Shown here: positions 1 to 7,863 of the stretch, in pieces | Layout of the letters: the number at the start of each line of letters is the position of its first letter | Numbering within the stretch: position 1 is the first letter of the stretch | Source of the DNA: a virus | Lineage: Duplodnaviria; Heunggongvirae; Uroviricota; Caudoviricetes | DNA length: 7,863 nt | IMG/VR virus record: IMGVR_UViG_2802429226_000012 | Span: 1-7,863 of that record | Reading direction: 5' to 3' (one strand) | Program-made: the position numbers and the translations under genes | The notes under the pieces: generated by a model | What the model saw: the letters and a program-made list of their open reading frames with translations, nothing else | The model's database searches: none | What the model was told of the DNA's origin: nothing

Positions 1-648
1 ATGGCAGCGACGCACACACTCCCTCTGGCGTCACCGGGCATGGCACGCATCTGCCTTTACGGGGATTTACAACGATTTGGCCGCCGCATCGACCTTCGTG
101 TAAAAACGGGGGCTGAAGCCATCCGGGCGTTGTCCACACAGCTCCCGGCGTTTCGTCAGAAACTGAATGAGGGCTGGTATCAGGTGCGCATTGCCGGGCG
201 TGATGCAGGCGAAAATGAATTATCTGCCCGTCTTAATGAGTCGCTGGCAAATGGTGCCGTGATCCACATTGTGCCGCGTCTGGCGGGAGCTAAAAGTGGC
301 GGTGTTTTTCAGGCAGTGCTGGGTGCGGCGCTGATTGCGGTGGCATGGTGGAACCCTGTGGGCTGGCTGGGTGCCGCGGCTGTATCGGGCATGTATGCGG
401 CAGGGGCCAGTATGATCCTGGGTGGTGTGGCCCAGATGCTGGCACCGAAAGCCCGGACGCCCACAGCGACCAGCACGGATAACGGTAAGCAGAACACCTA
501 TTTCTCATCACTGGATAACATGGTTGCCCAGGGCAATGTTCTGCCTGTTCTGTACGGTGAAATGCGCGTGGGGTCTCGTGTGGTTTCTCAGGAGATCAGC
601 ACGGCAGATGAAGGGGACGGTGGTCAGGTTGTGGTGATTGGCCGCTGA
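1..648 (+). CDS. I: Tail assembly protein I (lambda gpI-like); ATG at window position 1 appears to be the native start, stop TGA 646..648
   Basis: 215-aa ORF whose whole length (MAATHTLPLASPGMARICLYGDLQRFGRRIDLRV ... NGKQNTYFSSLDNMVAQGNVLPVLYGEMRVGSRVVSQEISTADEGDGGQVVVIGR) matches my recollection of lambda gpI; GC-rich, lies directly upstream of J as in lambda. Identity is from memory, not a search. Confidence 0.88.
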   Translation: MAATHTLPLASPGMARICLYGDLQRFGRRIDLRVKTGAEAIRALSTQLPAFRQKLNEGWYQVRIAGRDAGENELSARLNESLANGAVIHIVPRLAGAKSGGVFQAVLGAALIAVAWWNPVGWLGAAAVSGMYAAGASMILGGVAQMLAPKARTPTATSTDNGKQNTYFSSLDNMVAQGNVLPVLYGEMRVGSRVVSQEISTADEGDGGQVVVIGR

Positions 649-666
649 TGCAAAATATTTCATGTG

Positions 667-694
667 AAACCGCCTCCGGGCGGTTTTGTCGTTT
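667..694 (+). terminator. Short GC-rich hairpin (AAACCGCC-tccg-GGCGGTTT) followed by a T-rich tract in the I-J spacer; weak attenuator or mRNA-stabilising hairpin
   Basis: Perfect 8-bp inverted repeat with 4-nt loop at 667..686 followed by tgtcgttt. It sits within an operon between the I stop (648) and the J start (709), so it is probably not a full terminator. GGAG at 697..700 serves as RBS for J. Confidence 0.3.
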
Positions 695-708
695 ATGGAG
701 CATGACGA

Positions 709-3700
709 ATGGGCAAAGGAAGCAGTAAGGGGCATACCCCGCGCGAAGCGAAGGACAACCTGAAGTCCACGCAACTGCTGAGTGTGATTGATGCCATCAG
801 CGAAGGGCCGATTGAAGGTCCGGTGGATGGATTAAAAAGCGTGCTGCTGAACAGTACGCCGGTGCTGGACAGTGAGGGGAATACCAATATCTCCGGCGTC
901 ACGGTGGTGTTCCGGGCAGGCGAGCAGGAGCAGTCACCGCCGGAGGGATTTGAATCCTCCGGTTCCGAGACGGTGCTGGGTACGGAAGTGAAATATGACA
1001 CGCCGATCACCCGCACCATTACGTCGGCAAACATCGACCGTCTGCGCTTTACCTTCGGTGTACAGGCACTGGTGGAAACCACCTCAAAGGGTGACAGGAA
1101 TCCGTCGGAAGTCCGTCTGCTGGTTCAGATACAGCGTAACGGTGGCTGGGTGACGGAAAAAGACATCACCATTAAGGGCAAAACCACCTCGCAGTATCTG
1201 GCCTCGGTGGTGGTGGGTAACCTGCCGCCGCGCCCGTTTAATATCCGGATGCGCAGGATGACGCCGGACAGCACCACAGACCAGCTGCAGAACAAAACGC
1301 TCTGGTCGTCATACACCGAAATCATCGATGTGAAACAGTGCTACCCGAACACGGCACTGGTCGGCGTGCAGGTGGACTCGGAACAGTTCGGCAGCCAGCA
1401 GGTGAGCCGTAATTATCATCTTCGCGGGCGCATTCTGCAGGTGCCGTCGAACTATAACCCGCAGACGCGGCAATACAGCGGTATCTGGGACGGAACGTTT
1501 AAGCCAGCATACAGCAACAACATGGCCTGGTGTCTGTGGGATATGCTGACCCATCCGCGCTACGGCATGGGGAAGCGTCTCGGTGCGGCGGATGTGGACA
1601 AATGGGCGCTGTATGTCATCGGCCAGAATTGCGACCAGTCGGTGCCGGACGGCTTTGGCGGCACGGAGCCGCGCATCACCTGTAATGCGTACCTGACCAC
1701 ACAGCGCAAGGCGTGGGATGTGCTCAGTGATTTCTGCTCGGCGATGCGCTGTATGCCAGTATGGAACGGGCAGACGCTGACGTTCGTGCAGGACCGACCG
1801 TCGGATAAGGTGTGGACCTATAACCGCAGTAATGTGGTGATGCCGGATGATGGCGCACCGTTCCGCTACAGCTTCAGCGCCCTGAAAGACCGCCATAATG
1901 CCGTTGAGGTGAACTGGATTGACCCGAACAACGGCTGGGAGACGGCGACAGAGCTTGTGGAGGATACGCAGGCCATTGCCCGTTACGGTCGTAACGTCAC
2001 GAAGATGGATGCTTTTGGCTGTACCAGCCGGGGGCAGGCACACCGCGCCGGGCTGTGGCTGATTAAAACAGAACTGCTGGAAACGCAGACCGTGGACTTC
2101 AGCGTGGGGGCGGAAGGGCTTCGCCATGTACCGGGCGATGTCATTGAAATCTGCGATGATGACTATGCGGGTATCCGCATCGGCGGGCGCGTGCTTGCGG
2201 TAAACAGCCAGACCCGGACGCTGACGCTCGACCGTGAAATCACGCTGCCATCCTCCGGTACCACGCTGATAAGCCTGGTTGACGGAAGTGGCAATCCGGT
2301 CAGCGTGGAGGTTCAGTCCGTCACCGACGGCGTGAAGGTAAAAGTGAGCCGTGTTCCTGACGGTGTTGCTGAATACAGCGTATGGGGGCTGAAGCTGCCG
2401 ACGCTGCGCCAGCGTCTGTTCCGCTGTGTGAGTATCCGTGAGAACGATGACGGTACGTATGCCATCACTGCCGTGCAGCATGTACCGGAGAAAGAAGCCA
2501 TCGTGGATAACGGGGCGCACTTTGACGGCGACCAGAGTGGCACGGTGAATGGTGTCACGCCGCCAGCGGTGCAGCACCTGACTGCCGAAGTCACCGCAGA
2601 CAGCGGGGAATATCAGGTACTGGCGCGATGGGACACGCCGAAGGTGGTGAAGGGGGTGAGCTTTATGCTTCGCCTGACCGTGGCAGCGGATGACGGCAGT
2701 GAGCGGCTTGTCAGCACAGCCCGGACGACGGAAACCACATACCGCTTCAGGCAACTGGCGCTGGGGAACTACAGGCTGACAGTCCGGGCAGTAAATGCCT
2801 GGGGGCAGCAGGGGGATCCGGCGTCGGTATCGTTCCGGATTGCCGCACCGGCAGCGCCTGTCACTATTGAACTGATACCGGGGTATTTTCAGATAACGGC
2901 GGTCCCGAAACTGGCTGTATATGACCCGACGGTGCAGTTTGAGTTCTGGTTCTCGGAAAAGCAGATTATTGATATCAGGCAGGTTGAAACCAGCGCGCGT
3001 TATCTTGGTACGGCGCTGTACTGGATAGCCGCCAGTAGCAATATTAAGCCGGGTTATGATTATTACTTTTATATCCGCAGCGTGAACACCGTTGGTAAAT
3101 CGGCATTTGTGGAGGCCGTCGGTCGGGCGAGCGATGATGCGGAAGGTTATCTGAATTTTTATAAAGGGTTGATCAATAAAACGCATCTCGGCAAGGAGCT
3201 ACTGGAAAACTTTGAGCTGACGGAAGATAACGCCAGCAAACTGGAGGAGTTTTCGAAAGAGTGGAAAGACGCTAACGATAAATGGAATGCCATGTGGGGC
3301 GTCAAAATTGAGCAGACCAAAGACGGCAAACATTATGTCGCGGGTATTGGTCTCAGCATGGAGGACACGGAGGAAGGCAAGCTGAGCCAGTTTCTGGTTG
3401 CCGCTAACCGTATCGCGTTTATTGACCCGGCAAACGGGAATGAAACGCCGATGTTTGTGGCGCAGGGCAACCAGATATTCATGAACGACGTGTTCCTGAA
3501 GCGCCTGACAGCCCCCACCATTACCAGCGGTGGCAGTCCTCCGGTATTTTCCCTGACATCAGACGGAAAGCTGACCGCTAAAAATGCGGATATCAGTGGT
3601 AGTGTGAATGCGAACTCAGGAACGCTCAACAATGTCACGATTAACCAGAACTGTACGATTAAGGGCATGCTGGAGGCGACCCAGGTCAGAGGGGATTTCG

Positions 3701-4122
3701 TTAAAGCTGTATCAAAAGCCTTCCCGAAAAAAGTCGGTACGTGGGGTAACACGGAAACACCAAACGGTACGGTTACAGTCACCATCAGCGATGATCATAA
3801 CTTTGACCGCCAGATTATTATTCCGCCCATTATTTTTAACGGTATAGCGTATGACGATCCGGGGAGCGGAAATAACCCAGGAGGCACGCGATACACGGGT
3901 TATGGTTTTGAAGTTCGCAAAAACGGCGTATTAATCGCATCCAGAGAAACTAAAGGGGCCATTCCCGGTAGTTACAGTGCAGTTATTGATATGCCTAGTG
4001 GTGGTGGTAGCGTCACTCTGGAGTTTAAGGTTTTCCAGAAAGGCAATCAGGGGGCAGGCAATATCACCGACTGTACGGTGATTGTGACCAAAAAAGCCGC
4101 TTCCGGTATCAGTATCCGTTGA
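709..4122 (+). CDS. J: Host specificity protein J (central tail fibre / tail tip protein) with a divergent C-terminal receptor-binding region
   Basis: 1137-aa ORF; N-terminal and central sequence ([45 protein letters not shown] ... [43 protein letters not shown]) matches my recollection of lambda J (about 1130 aa). RBS GGAG 8 nt upstream of the ATG. The last roughly 130-150 aa (from about nt 3700) are AT-richer and do not match the lambda J C-terminus as I recall it. Confidence 0.95.
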
Positions 4123-4142
4123 AATATTTATAACCCCAATAC

Positions 4143-4170
4143 GGGCGCCAGAAATGGCGCCTTTTTTATT
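4143..4170 (+). terminator. Rho-independent terminator-like hairpin immediately after J
   Basis: GGGCGCC-agaaat-GGCGCC stem-loop (4143..4161) followed by TTTTTTATTT (4162..4171), 21 nt after the J stop codon and 12 nt before the stf start. Confidence 0.55.
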
Positions 4171-4182
4171 TGTGGAGTGAGT

Positions 4183-6564
4183 ATGGCAGTACAGATTTCA
4201 GGTGTGCTGAAAGATGGTGCGGGAAAACCAATACAGAACTGCACTATTCAACTGAAGGCAAAGCGTAACAGCACCACGGTACTGGTGAACACGGTGGCCT
4301 CTGAAAATCCGGATGAAGCCGGGCGTTACAGCATTGATGTTGAGTATGGCCAGTACAGCGTTATCCTGCTGGTTGAAGGTTTTCCGCCTTCACATGCCGG
4401 GACCATTACCGTCTATGAAGGCTCCAGACCAGGTACGCTGAATGATTTTCTCGGTGCCATGACGGAAGATGATGTCATGCCGGAGGCATTGCGTCGTTTT
4501 GAGGAAATGGTGGAAGAAGCGGCACGCAACGCTGAAGCCGCCTCTCAGAGCGCAGCGGCGGCAAAGAAATCCGAAACTGCAGCGGCATCATCGAAGAATG
4601 CGGCGAAAACCTCAGAAACGAATGCAGCTAACAGCGCACAGGCGGCAGCGGCCTCGCAGACTGCATCGGCAAACTCCGCGACAGCAGCCAAAAAATCAGA
4701 AACCAACGCGAAAAACAGCGAGACAGCCGCAAAGACGAGCGAAACCAACGCAAAGTCCAGCCAGACAGCAGCGAAAACCAGCGAAACGAATGCCAAAGCC
4801 AGTGAAACTGCGGCGAAAAACAGCCAGGATGCAGCAGCCGAAAGCGAGAGTGACGCAGCTGGTTCTGCAAGTGCGGCGGCTTCTTCTGCCACTGCATCAG
4901 CCAACAGTCAAAAAGCTGCAAAAACCAGCGAAACCAACGCAAAGTCCAGCCAGACGGCAGCGAAAACCAGCGAAACGAATGCCAAAGCCAGTGAAACTGC
5001 GGCGAAAAGCAGTCAGGATGCAGCAGCCGAAAGCGAGAGTGCTGCAGCTGGCTCTGCAAGCGCGGCGGCTGCTTCTGCCACTGCATCAGCCAACAGTCAA
5101 AAAGCTGCAAAAACCAGTGAAACCAACGCAAAGGCGAGCGAGACTGCGGCGGCTAACTCGGCGAAAGCATCCGCTGCAAGCCAGACGGCTGCAAAAGCAA
5201 GTGAAGACGCAGCCAGAGAGTATGCAAGCCAGGCTGCGGAGCCGTATAAACAAGTATTGCAGCCGCTTCCCGATGTGTGGATACCGTTTAACGATTCACT
5301 GGATATGATTACGGGCTTTTCGCCGTCATATAAAAAGATTGTTATTGGTGATGATGAAATAACAATGCCTGGCGACAAGATTGTAAAGTTTAAACGCGCA
5401 TCAAAAGCAACTTACATTAATAAATCTGGTGTGCTGACAGAGGCTGCAATCGATGAACCTCGCTTTGAAAAGTATGGATTGCTGATTGAAGGGCAGCGTA
5501 CAAACCTGTTAATAAACAGCACAAATCCATCAAAGTGGAACAAGTCATCAAATATGATTTTAAATACATCAGGTGTAGATGATTTTGGTTTCCAGTACGC
5601 AAAATTCACATTAAAACCAGAAATGGTGGGGCAAACCTCAGCCATTTCTATTGTCACAGTATCTGGAAGCAAAGGATATGATGTTACCGGCGATGAAAAG
5701 TATGTAACTATCTCATGCAGGGTACAAAGTGGGACTCCAAATTTAAGATGTCGATTACGATTTGAAGAATATGATGGATCTACCTACAAATTCCTGGGTG
5801 ATGCTTACTTAAATATGACAGATTTATCGATTGATAAAACTGGCGGCGCTGCAAGTCGTATTACTGCAAGGGCTGTTAAAAATGAAGCAAGCAAATGGAT
5901 TTTCTTTGAGGCAACAATTAAGGCACTTGATACAGAAAATATGATCGGTGCGATGGTGCAATATGCACCACCAAAAGGGGGAAGCACTGGTGCAGATGAT
6001 TATATTTATGTTGCAACTCCTCAGGTCGAAGGCGGTTCGTGCGCTTCTTCGTTTATTATTACTGAGGCAACGCCAGTCACAAGAGCCAGTGATATGGTGA
6101 ATATACCAACAAATAACAATATCGGTACACCACCTTTAACATTTCTAGCTGAAGTTCATACAAACTGGAACGAAACGCCAAATGCAGCACCACGAATTTT
6201 TGATACCAGTGGTGGGAGCACAACTCCGGGTCAATATATAAGTGTTGCTATTAGTTCAACATTATTTCCTAGTGTTACGATGTACAATAAAAACGGTAGT
6301 ACAGTAGCCGCCGTATCGCCAGTATTATTTGAACAAAAATCTGTTCTTGGATTTGTTTTAAATGAATCTGGTAATGTGCATTTCGTTAGCAATGCTCAGC
6401 ATGGAACTCCTAAAACTACGGATCATGTCGGTGTTAAATCTGGTTATTTCTTCAGGATTGGTGGGCAGACTAATAGCGGCCTACGTCATCTTTTCGGTCA
6501 CATTCGTAATTTTCGTATATGGCATAAAGAATTAACCGATGCGCAAATGGGAGAGATAATATAA
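4183..6564 (+). CDS. stf: Side tail fibre protein (lambda Stf-like N-terminus; repeat-rich shaft; distinct C-terminal LamG/concanavalin-A-like receptor-binding domain)
   Basis: ORF track gives 4177..6564 from a GTG; I prefer the ATG at 4183 because the product then begins MAVQISGVLKDGAGKPIQNCTIQLKAKRNSTTVLVNTVASENPDEAGRYSIDVEYGQYSVIL, matching the lambda Stf N-terminus from memory, and GGAG at 4173..4176 is correctly spaced. Middle region has KTSETNAK-type Ala/Ser/Thr repeats. C-terminal end FGHIRNFRIWHKELTDAQMGEI resembles the C-terminal consensus of LamG-like (Laminin_G_3) domains (F-G-x-I-D-E-V-R-I-Y-N-R-A-L-S-x-x-E-I). Stop TAA 6562..6564. Confidence 0.85.
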   Translation: MAVQISGVLKDGAGKPIQNCTIQLKAKRNSTTVLVNTVASENPDEAGRYSIDVEYGQYSVILLVEGFPPSHAGTITVYEGSRPGTLNDFLGAMTEDDVMPEALRRFEEMVEEAARNAEAASQSAAAAKKSETAAASSKNAAKTSETNAANSAQAAAASQTASANSATAAKKSETNAKNSETAAKTSETNAKSSQTAAKTSETNAKASETAAKNSQDAAAESESDAAGSASAAASSATASANSQKAAKTSETNAKSSQTAAKTSETNAKASETAAKSSQDAAAESESAAAGSASAAAASATASANSQKAAKTSETNAKASETAAANSAKASAASQTAAKASEDAAREYASQAAEPYKQVLQPLPDVWIPFNDSLDMITGFSPSYKKIVIGDDEITMPGDKIVKFKRASKATYINKSGVLTEAAIDEPRFEKYGLLIEGQRTNLLINSTNPSKWNKSSNMILNTSGVDDFGFQYAKFTLKPEMVGQTSAISIVTVSGSKGYDVTGDEKYVTISCRVQSGTPNLRCRLRFEEYDGSTYKFLGDAYLNMTDLSIDKTGGAASRITARAVKNEASKWIFFEATIKALDTENMIGAMVQYAPPKGGSTGADDYIYVATPQVEGGSCASSFIITEATPVTRASDMVNIPTNNNIGTPPLTFLAEVHTNWNETPNAAPRIFDTSGGSTTPGQYISVAISSTLFPSVTMYNKNGSTVAAVSPVLFEQKSVLGFVLNESGNVHFVSNAQHGTPKTTDHVGVKSGYFFRIGGQTNSGLRHLFGHIRNFRIWHKELTDAQMGEII
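4726..5150 (+). repeat. In-frame tandem direct repeat, 189-bp unit (63 aa), about 2.2 copies, inside the stf shaft region; built from shorter roughly 42-bp (14-aa) sub-repeats
   Basis: gaaaccaacgcaaagtccagccagac occurs at 4741..4766 and 4930..4955; aaaaccagcgaaaccaacgcaaag at 4921..4944 and, with one mismatch, at 5110..5133 (offsets of 189). Copies are near-identical over most of the unit. Encoded repeat is AKTSETNAKSSQTAAKTSETNAKASETAAK[N/S]SQDAAAESES[D/A]AAGSASAAA[S/A]SATASANSQKA. Confidence 0.85.
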
Positions 6565-6845
6565 TGCGAGATTTAATTATCAAATTCACAGACAAGGCCG
6601 ACTTTTCGGCCTTTATGGATAGCATTGGTTATGACGATGACGAGGTGATGCAGAACAATGTTCTCATTGACGTGATAGGTAACGTGTATAAAGAAACCGG
6701 AGAACTGACTGAAGATGGCGAACCGGTATGTGTTAAGGAAGACGGATATTTTGTAAATGTGCGCATCATTAATGATGTGAAAACACCGTCAATGTTCGAT
6801 GAATACGCGGTTGTTGTTGAGCATCAACTTCGTGGCTGGATGTGA
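6564..6845 (+). CDS. Small strongly acidic protein of unknown function, translationally coupled to stf; occupies the position of a tail-fibre assembly gene but is not recognisably Tfa-like
   Basis: 93-aa ORF; ATG at 6564 overlaps the stf stop (TAATG). GGAGAG 8 nt upstream. About 21 Asp/Glu against about 8 Lys/Arg by my count. AT-rich codon usage like the stf C-terminal domain. No similarity to lambda Tfa that I can recognise. Confidence 0.6.
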   Translation: MRDLIIKFTDKADFSAFMDSIGYDDDEVMQNNVLIDVIGNVYKETGELTEDGEPVCVKEDGYFVNVRIINDVKTPSMFDEYAVVVEHQLRGWM

Positions 6846-6854
6846 GGCAGAAAA

Positions 6855-7559
6855 ATGGCTACATCGACAGTAATTCCAGGAGATATCACCACGCTAAAGG
6901 GAGAAGTCACTAAAACTAAGGAAGATATTTCCTCAATTAACGGAAAAGTATCAACGCTTCAGACTGATATGACCAGTGCAAAGCAGGATATCAGCTCCAG
7001 ATACACAAAAACTGAAGTTGATAATAAGCTGAAAAACAAAGTGGAAGCGAACGATCTGGAAAGCGGTCGTTATGGCGGTGATTTTTACCCGCTGACAGGT
7101 CGAGAAGCGTTTTATTTATGGAATTTGGCCACGACTACAGCGGCGGCAAACCTTTATCTTAATCCTGACCCCGCAATTTCGTCTGTACTGCGGTCAACAT
7201 CGTCTATTCGCTATAAACATTCAGTAGAGACGATAGATTCAGAGCACGCCGATCTCATTTTCAAGATGCGCCCTGTGTGGTACAGGTCGCAATGCGAAAA
7301 TGACAGGCGCGATTGGGGATTCTATGGATTGATTGCCGAGGAAGTAGGAGAAATTGCCCCTCAGTTTGTTCACTGGCGACCAGCTAACGAAGATGATGCA
7401 CCGGAAACCATTTCCAGCAATGGCCTTGTTGCCGAAGGTGTAATGTACGAACGTCTGGTTGTTCCACTGATTCACCATATCCAGAAACTGACTGAAAGAG
7501 TTGATGAACTTGAGTCAGAATTAAAGTTGTTATTAACTTCCCGAAGCGATATTGGATAA
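6855..7559 (+). CDS. Short tail-fibre-like protein with C-terminal peptidase S74 intramolecular chaperone (endosialidase-chaperone type) autoproteolytic domain
   Basis: 234-aa ORF. N-terminal half has fibre-shaft-like motifs (ITTLKGEVTKTKEDISSINGKVSTLQTDMTSAKQDISSRYTKTEVDNKLKNKVEANDL). C-terminal half (SSIRYKHSVETIDSEHADLIFKMRPVWYRSQ ... DWGFYGLIAEEVGEIAPQFV ... GLVAEGVMYERLVVPLIHHIQKLTERVDELESELKLL) fits the Peptidase_S74 consensus (S-D-x-x-L-K-E-N-I ... R-P-V-x-Y ... G-F-I-A-Q-E-V ... Y-x-x-L-V-P-L-L-I-x-A-I-K-E-L). Ser116 and Lys121 are spaced as in the catalytic Ser-Lys dyad. Confidence 0.8.
   Translation: MATSTVIPGDITTLKGEVTKTKEDISSINGKVSTLQTDMTSAKQDISSRYTKTEVDNKLKNKVEANDLESGRYGGDFYPLTGREAFYLWNLATTTAAANLYLNPDPAISSVLRSTSSIRYKHSVETIDSEHADLIFKMRPVWYRSQCENDRRDWGFYGLIAEEVGEIAPQFVHWRPANEDDAPETISSNGLVAEGVMYERLVVPLIHHIQKLTERVDELESELKLLLTSRSDIG
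7200..7556 (+). other. Peptidase S74 / intramolecular chaperone domain within the 6855..7559 CDS; predicted autocleavage at Ser116 (codon 7200..7202) with Lys121 (codon 7215..7217)
   Basis: Motif alignment to the S74 family consensus as described for the parent CDS; the S-x-x-x-x-K spacing matches the Ser/Lys dyad arrangement described for endosialidase C-terminal chaperone domains. Confidence 0.7.
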
Positions 7560-7569
7560 AGGAGGAGTC

Positions 7570-7863
7570 ATGGATATAACACCTTTCCTTCACGCGCTTT
7601 GTGCTGTGGCTGCGCAGGTACTGGTTGGTCTTTTTACCGGAAACTGGGCTTACGGGGCGATAGCCGGTTGTACATTCTTCATTGCGCGGGAACACACCCA
7701 GGCAGAATATCGCTGGATTGAAATGTTCGGGCATGGCAAGCGGATTAACATGCCGTGGTGGGGCGGTTTTGATCCACGTGCATGGGATGTGGCAAGCCTG
7801 ATGGATTTTGCTGTGCCGGTGGTGGCGTGTCTGCTGGTCTGGCTGTTGGTTAATCGCGGGTGA
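7570..7863 (+). CDS. Small predicted inner-membrane protein (2-3 hydrophobic segments), function unknown; possible moron or accessory gene
   Basis: ORF track starts at a TTG (7552) that overlaps the upstream stop; I prefer the ATG at 7570, preceded by a strong SD (AAAGGAGGAG, 7558..7567). 97-aa product with hydrophobic stretches FLHALCAVAAQVLVGLFTGNWAYGAIAGCTFFIA and FAVPVVACLLVWLLV. GC-rich, unlike the two upstream genes. Stop TGA at 7861..7863, the last codon of the window. Confidence 0.55.
   Translation: MDITPFLHALCAVAAQVLVGLFTGNWAYGAIAGCTFFIAREHTQAEYRWIEMFGHGKRINMPWWGGFDPRAWDVASLMDFAVPVVACLLVWLLVNRG

Follow-up and report, generated by a model that had tools for sequence, protein, structure and literature searches.

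The DNA analyzed here, a stretch of 7,863 nucleotides referred to as the window, represents the right end of a lambdoid tail gene cluster, with the 3' part of gene I followed by gene J, a hairpin, stf and three more ORFs (Table 1). When the window was compared with phage records by megablast, lambdoid coliphages were matched throughout, the best being the Escherichia phage IdasGreatGrand (96% over positions 649-7848), followed by HannyBb and Tritos.

Table 1. Features of the window and the matches on which they are based
Feature	Position (nt)	Strand	Basis
I, 3' part	1-648		Lambda_tail_I match
J, tip attachment/central tail fibre protein, 1137 aa, intact	709-4122	+	ORF
J backbone common to lambda and 434 (aa 1-973): hub, FNIII/Ig domains, helical shaft, beta-prism fibre	709-3627	+	Pfam; PMC11101478
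434-type (h434) receptor-binding module, aa 974-1137 and stop codon	3628-4122	+	Identity to lambda versus 434; AlphaFold model
Intrinsic terminator-like hairpin and T-run after J, 434 type	4143-4172 (hairpin 4143-4162)	+	Scan: GGGCGCCAGAAATGGCGCCT then TTTTTATTTG
stf-like side tail fibre gene, 793 aa	4183-6564	+	PF08400 N-terminal domain; full-length phrog_1419 match
First ORF after stf, 93 aa	within 6564-7863		phrog_1361, function unknown
Second ORF after stf, 234 aa	within 6564-7863		Peptidase_S74 intramolecular chaperone domain; resembles the last ~240 residues of long fibre proteins (phrog_3299)
Third ORF after stf, runs off the window	within 6564-7863		phrog_1443

The J product belongs to the gpJ family. 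All six of its Pfam families scored above the cut-off and in the lambda order (FNIII-A_GpJ, Phage-tail_3, Ig_J, Ig_J_second, Phage_Tail_Tip and Ig_GpJ_C), BLASTP returned a single alignment to lambda J that was colinear over the full length with 88% identity (1137/1132 aa), and the gene follows I. The backbone, aa 1-973, was identical to lambda J at 937 of 973 residues (96.3%) and 97.1% identical to 434 J, without gaps in either comparison, which bears out the original prediction that most of J matches lambda.

A milder second mosaic patch was found within J at about positions 2860-3240 (aa 718-844), from the second Ig/FNIII domain into the beginning of the helical shaft. It carries 19 amino acid changes relative to lambda, 434 and IdasGreatGrand, which are themselves near-identical there; the full-length phage matches listed for the patch DNA were 87.1% identical, and five records lay at 90-95%. 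On the minus strand, a 625-aa ORF (1309-3186) inside GC-rich J sequence most likely reflects the codon bias of the sense strand and not a gene.

Downstream of J, the hairpin lines up with the annotated post-J terminator of phage 434, and does not line up with that of lambda. The J-stf gap (4123-4182) is without lom, and the 434-type terminator leads directly to the ribosome-binding site and ATG (4183) of stf. A lom moron of 600-620 nt lies between J and stf in lambda, in 434 and in the closest phage, IdasGreatGrand; HannyBb, Tritos, PhiR63_1 and ev207 are colinear with the window over the junction. The stf gene is host-range context and lies outside the J swap. Its N-terminus is lambda-like (PF08400), whereas its C-terminal half is very AT-rich (GC 39.7%, GC3 29.7%) and matches, at 82-84% in its DNA, tail proteins of larger, unrelated coliphages, BUCT632 and EC195 among them. 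Sequence comparison suggests for this half a fibre-tip exchange of its own, which would have a further effect on host range. In place of a lambda-type tfa, the region after stf (6564-7863) contains three ORFs; the one of 234 aa could represent a piece of a fibre tip or a second tip protein.

The C-terminus of gpJ compared with lambda and 434

The similarity of J to lambda ends abruptly near the C-terminus. DNA identity per 90-nt bin was 92-99% up to position 3588, 80% at 3589-3678 and 36-61% from 3679 on, and a three-way alignment of the window, 434 and lambda placed the start of dense mismatches to lambda at positions 3618-3645. At the protein level, aa 974-1137 and lambda J shared 64 of 170 alignment columns (37.6%) with 17 gap columns, so that the domain falls outside the lambda-type, LamB-binding group, whose members stay near lambda J aa 974-1132 with the contact loops included. 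The original prediction had put forward an alignment to lambda J as the check on its claim; the two ends proved colinear but only about 37% identical, far from the near-identity that would have spoken against a change. It had also set the divergent end at 130-150 residues from position 3700. The divergence was confirmed, and over the span first proposed (aa 998-1137) identity to lambda J was 34.9%, but the segment is longer, about 164 residues from aa 974, and begins some 70 nt further upstream. What 3700-4122 almost equals is the Pfam domain Ig_GpJ_C, described as the 'C-terminal receptor binding domain', at aa 1001-1136 (positions 3709-4116, 4.2e-25); the peptide quoted in the prediction lies at aa 1043-1137.

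The C-terminus could be identified directly with that of phage 434. Over aa 974-1137, 161 of 164 residues were identical to 434 J (98.2%) without indels, the DNA of the module was 96-100% identical to 434 per 90-nt bin, and both sequences leave lambda at the same positions, 3618-3645. J as a whole has the same length in phage 434 (OL657226; lambda h434 imm21, OM418627), 1137 aa, with 1106 identical residues (97%) and no gaps, the same junction with a lambda-like backbone and the same type of terminator after J. The differences from 434 J are three substitutions in the receptor-binding domain (RBD), N1019D, Q1110H and G1115R (window to 434), and, in the backbone, the patch of 19 substitutions at aa 718-844. 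Beyond J, phage 434 has lom, a shorter stf (437 aa) and a tfa-like chaperone, whereas the window has no lom and an stf of 793 aa. Across 681 nt around the J end, identity was 97.5% to phage 434, 97.3% to lambda h434 imm21, 98.5% to mEp460_ev081 and 91-96% to many Stx-converting and other lambdoid phages. The expectation that J would carry a different receptor-binding module on a lambda-like backbone was therefore upheld by the 98.2% identity to the 434 domain.

The J end had further been described as visibly AT-richer than the rest of the gene. This is real, with GC of 47.3% at 3700-4122 versus 56.7% in the rest of J and GC3 of 44.7% versus 68.5%, but only in part is it peculiar to the exchanged segment. 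In the corresponding part of lambda J, GC is 54.2% and GC3 61%; the drop starts at about position 2850, upstream of the divergence, and is partly shared by lambda; and of all 423-nt segments of J, the one beginning at 2916 is richest in AT (46.6% GC). Because GC falls before the divergence and lambda is partly alike, composition alone has no power to mark the boundary of the swap; the GC shift, considered as independent evidence of foreign origin, was rejected as a boundary marker.

Predicted receptor and allelic variation

The receptor of phage 434 is reportedly protein Ib, which is OmpC, the original report being that of Hantke in 1978. Published work gives OmpC as the receptor of 434, and lambda equipped with the J of 434 binds OmpC instead of LamB (PMC3509688, PMC11101478, PMC12502783). 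Since the J end is near-identical to that of 434 (98%) and 434 uses OmpC, we consider the divergent end very probably (about 0.9) to be the classical phage 434 (h434) receptor-binding domain and predict OmpC as its receptor. The sequence comparison thus supports the earlier expectation of a receptor other than LamB and sharpens it to OmpC.

The hybrid lambda h434 imm21 (PMC9119081) was used to delimit the host-range determinant. Its left crossover (OM418627) lies within J at record nucleotides 17619-17637, that is, at codons ~705-711, and to the right of it all DNA is that of 434 through lom, stf, tfa and the effector genes of the b-region. The h434 host-range allele must accordingly lie to the right of codons ~705-711, which fits a determinant in the J C-terminus. 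As sole proof that the RBD is the determinant the hybrid was rejected, for it also carries the lom, stf and tfa of 434.

Residual doubt about a 434-type domain directed to OmpC lies mainly in allele-specific tropism. The 434-type family is polymorphic at residues 1004, 1008-1009, 1019, 1049, 1099, 1108, 1110 and 1115, and N1019, Q1110 and G1115 of the window fall at such variable positions, where they are common states. It is conceivable, though on the whole doubtful, that these sites form an allelic series tuned to natural OmpC variants and that N1019, Q1110 and G1115 give a host spectrum unlike that of laboratory 434; if so, a fine-scale arms race would run on top of the coarse module swap. 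A rival reading, in which residues 1019, 1110 and 1115 alter the OmpC variants recognized by the window's domain, or bring in another receptor such as OmpF as an addition or a replacement, appears improbable. Besides the polymorphism of the three sites, it would draw on the placing of residues 1115 and 1099 in loops of the predicted model, on the discrimination of OmpC alleles by gpJ RBDs (1A2 works on the OmpC of EDL933 and not on that of MG1655; PMC11338833) and on phages lambda and 21, where few J substitutions suffice to alter receptor use and single J mutations do so in phage 21 (PMC11336670). Nothing, however, points to a receptor other than OmpC; N, Q and G are common in the family, in which P0001 (396 member sequences) and P0002 (624) show 99% identity, and the exact DNA of the module (100%) occurs in three complete E. 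coli genomes, so the allele of the window is a standard one and not an unusual one. Phage 21 was also considered as an OmpC reference and rejected, its native receptor being LamB and its use of OmpC arising only through mutation (PMC11336670). A literature search for receptor data on the PhiR/ECOR13 temperate phages with the same J found no relevant paper.

Fold and other gpJ receptor-binding types

The classical 434 domain was then placed among the solved gpJ structures. Against PDB sequences, the last 187 residues of J gave E values of 2.7e-47 for A8 gpJ (9wca), the best match among solved structures, and ~1e-38 for lambda gpJ (8xcj, 8iyk; best 2.4e-38). An AlphaFold model of the J end (monomer, 22 homologues) reached a pLDDT of 77.9, that is, moderate confidence, and a pTM of 0.66. 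When the model was searched against the PDB with Foldseek, the top four matches were 8xck, 8xcj, 9wcb and 9wca (E values of 1e-13 to 1e-14, TM 0.67-0.70), representing the lambda fibre closed and LamB-bound (8xck, 8xcj) and the A8 fibre closed and OmpC-bound (9wca, 9wcb); the next matches were ten orders of magnitude weaker. The modelled J end has the same Ig-like fold as the domains of lambda gpJ with LamB and A8 gpJ with OmpC.

An invariant framework (FDRQ, DMPxGxG and KK..GI) runs through the alignment of the RBD types. Relative to lambda, the indels occupy stretches that separate predicted strands, at model residues 60-65, 101-108 and 162-166 (aa 1010-1015, 1051-1058 and 1112-1116), and the loops so located in the model may take part in receptor contact. 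The lambda RBD puts four distal loops into the LamB trimer; on binding, the RBD base spreads, the beta-prism twists, the helical shaft flips and the tail tip opens (Ge & Wang, 2024, PMC11101478). The lambda gpJ RBD with LamB (8XCJ/8XCK) shows the same Ig-like fold in a trimeric fibre, and the upstream signal-transmitting domains are 96% identical to those of the window, whereas the RBDs themselves differ, with 37.6% identity and indels in predicted loops, and the lambda receptor is LamB.

J forms a trimer whose C-terminal Ig-like domains, at the tip of the central tail fibre, offer loops to a trimeric outer-membrane porin, which is LamB in lambda and is predicted to be OmpC with the 434-type module. 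Binding would open the RBD base, after which the beta-prism would twist, the helical shaft would flip and the tail tip would open for DNA ejection. Because J and its lambda counterpart agree at about 96% of the residues before aa 974, we infer that these transmission steps would be the same as in lambda and that only the porin-contacting surface would have been exchanged.

Other gpJ types lead to OmpC as well. Brodel et al. (2024, PMC11338833) swapped gpJ C-termini at lambda aa 964 and obtained working OmpC-targeting particles; this engineered graft point lies just upstream of the break seen here. The A8 and 1A2 gpJ of that work (PDB 9WCA/9WCB for A8 gpJ with OmpC) have the same fold and carry C-terminal modules that redirect lambda particles to OmpC. 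A8 is of the P0052 type and 1A2 of the P0076/P0116 type, both with some 50% identity to the RBD of the window, which shares the fold alone with the A8/P0052 cluster and stands outside it at ~51-54% identity to P0051-P0053. Since the printed A8 and 1A2 ends belong to other RBD types, that paper contains no direct test of the 434-type receptor, and searches of its supplementary files with four strings of 17-20 nt and four peptide strings did not find the RBD of the window among the gpJ chimeras. The EHEC siphophage phi330, lambdoid and long-tailed, has a J-like tip that targets OmpC, as judged by knockout and complementation (PMC12502783); with a reported identity of only 35-40% to the RBDs of 434 and lambda, its RBD is yet another type. 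Counting the 434 type with those of A8 and 1A2, at least three RBD families with mutual identities of about 50% converge on OmpC.

Origin and distribution of the module

The sequences point to acquisition of the 434-type module by recombination at the conserved stretch just upstream of aa 974. Identity to lambda steps from ~96% to ~40% within roughly 30 nt, GC3 is 45-49% versus 61% in the lambda counterpart, a module 90-100% identical stands beside differing J backbones and downstream regions (with or without lom, with different stf), and a near-identical flank up to aa ~973 is common to at least four discrete RBD types whose mutual identity is about 50%. Given these four observations, it is very improbable that no module was exchanged and that the C-terminus of a lambda-like ancestor instead changed in situ under diversifying selection, its AT-richness being incidental, even though the domain is homologous to that of lambda over its whole length (E 2.4e-38) and GC declines already upstream of the break, in part also in lambda.

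The module recombined into J is widespread. Its DNA (positions 3630-4122) was found at 80% identity or higher in 2112 of 5426 complete E. coli genomes (~39%); 218 records fell into the class of at least 99% identity, 996 into 95-99% and 886 into 90-95%. It was also present in 164 phage records, on many different backbones. The homologous segment of lambda was found in 98 of the 5426 genomes (<2%), every one at 99% identity or higher, and the five carriers listed were laboratory K-12, B and DE3 strains. A protein search with the RBD gave a bimodal result, with one group 90-99% identical (the 434 type) and several others at ~50%, the A8 and 1A2 types among the latter. Among E. coli prophages, the 434-type J end is a very common module and nothing out of the ordinary.

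The modularity of J at this locus is a textbook case with an already known, very common allele, and it opens no new biological question. It is textbook lambda that is the unusual case, the 434-type tip being far commoner in E. coli genomes than the LamB-binding tip. The finding locates the point of exchange within J at about aa 964-974 and, for this phage or prophage, yields a receptor prediction that can be put to use, OmpC and not LamB; this is of relevance to phage engineering and to the prediction of host range.
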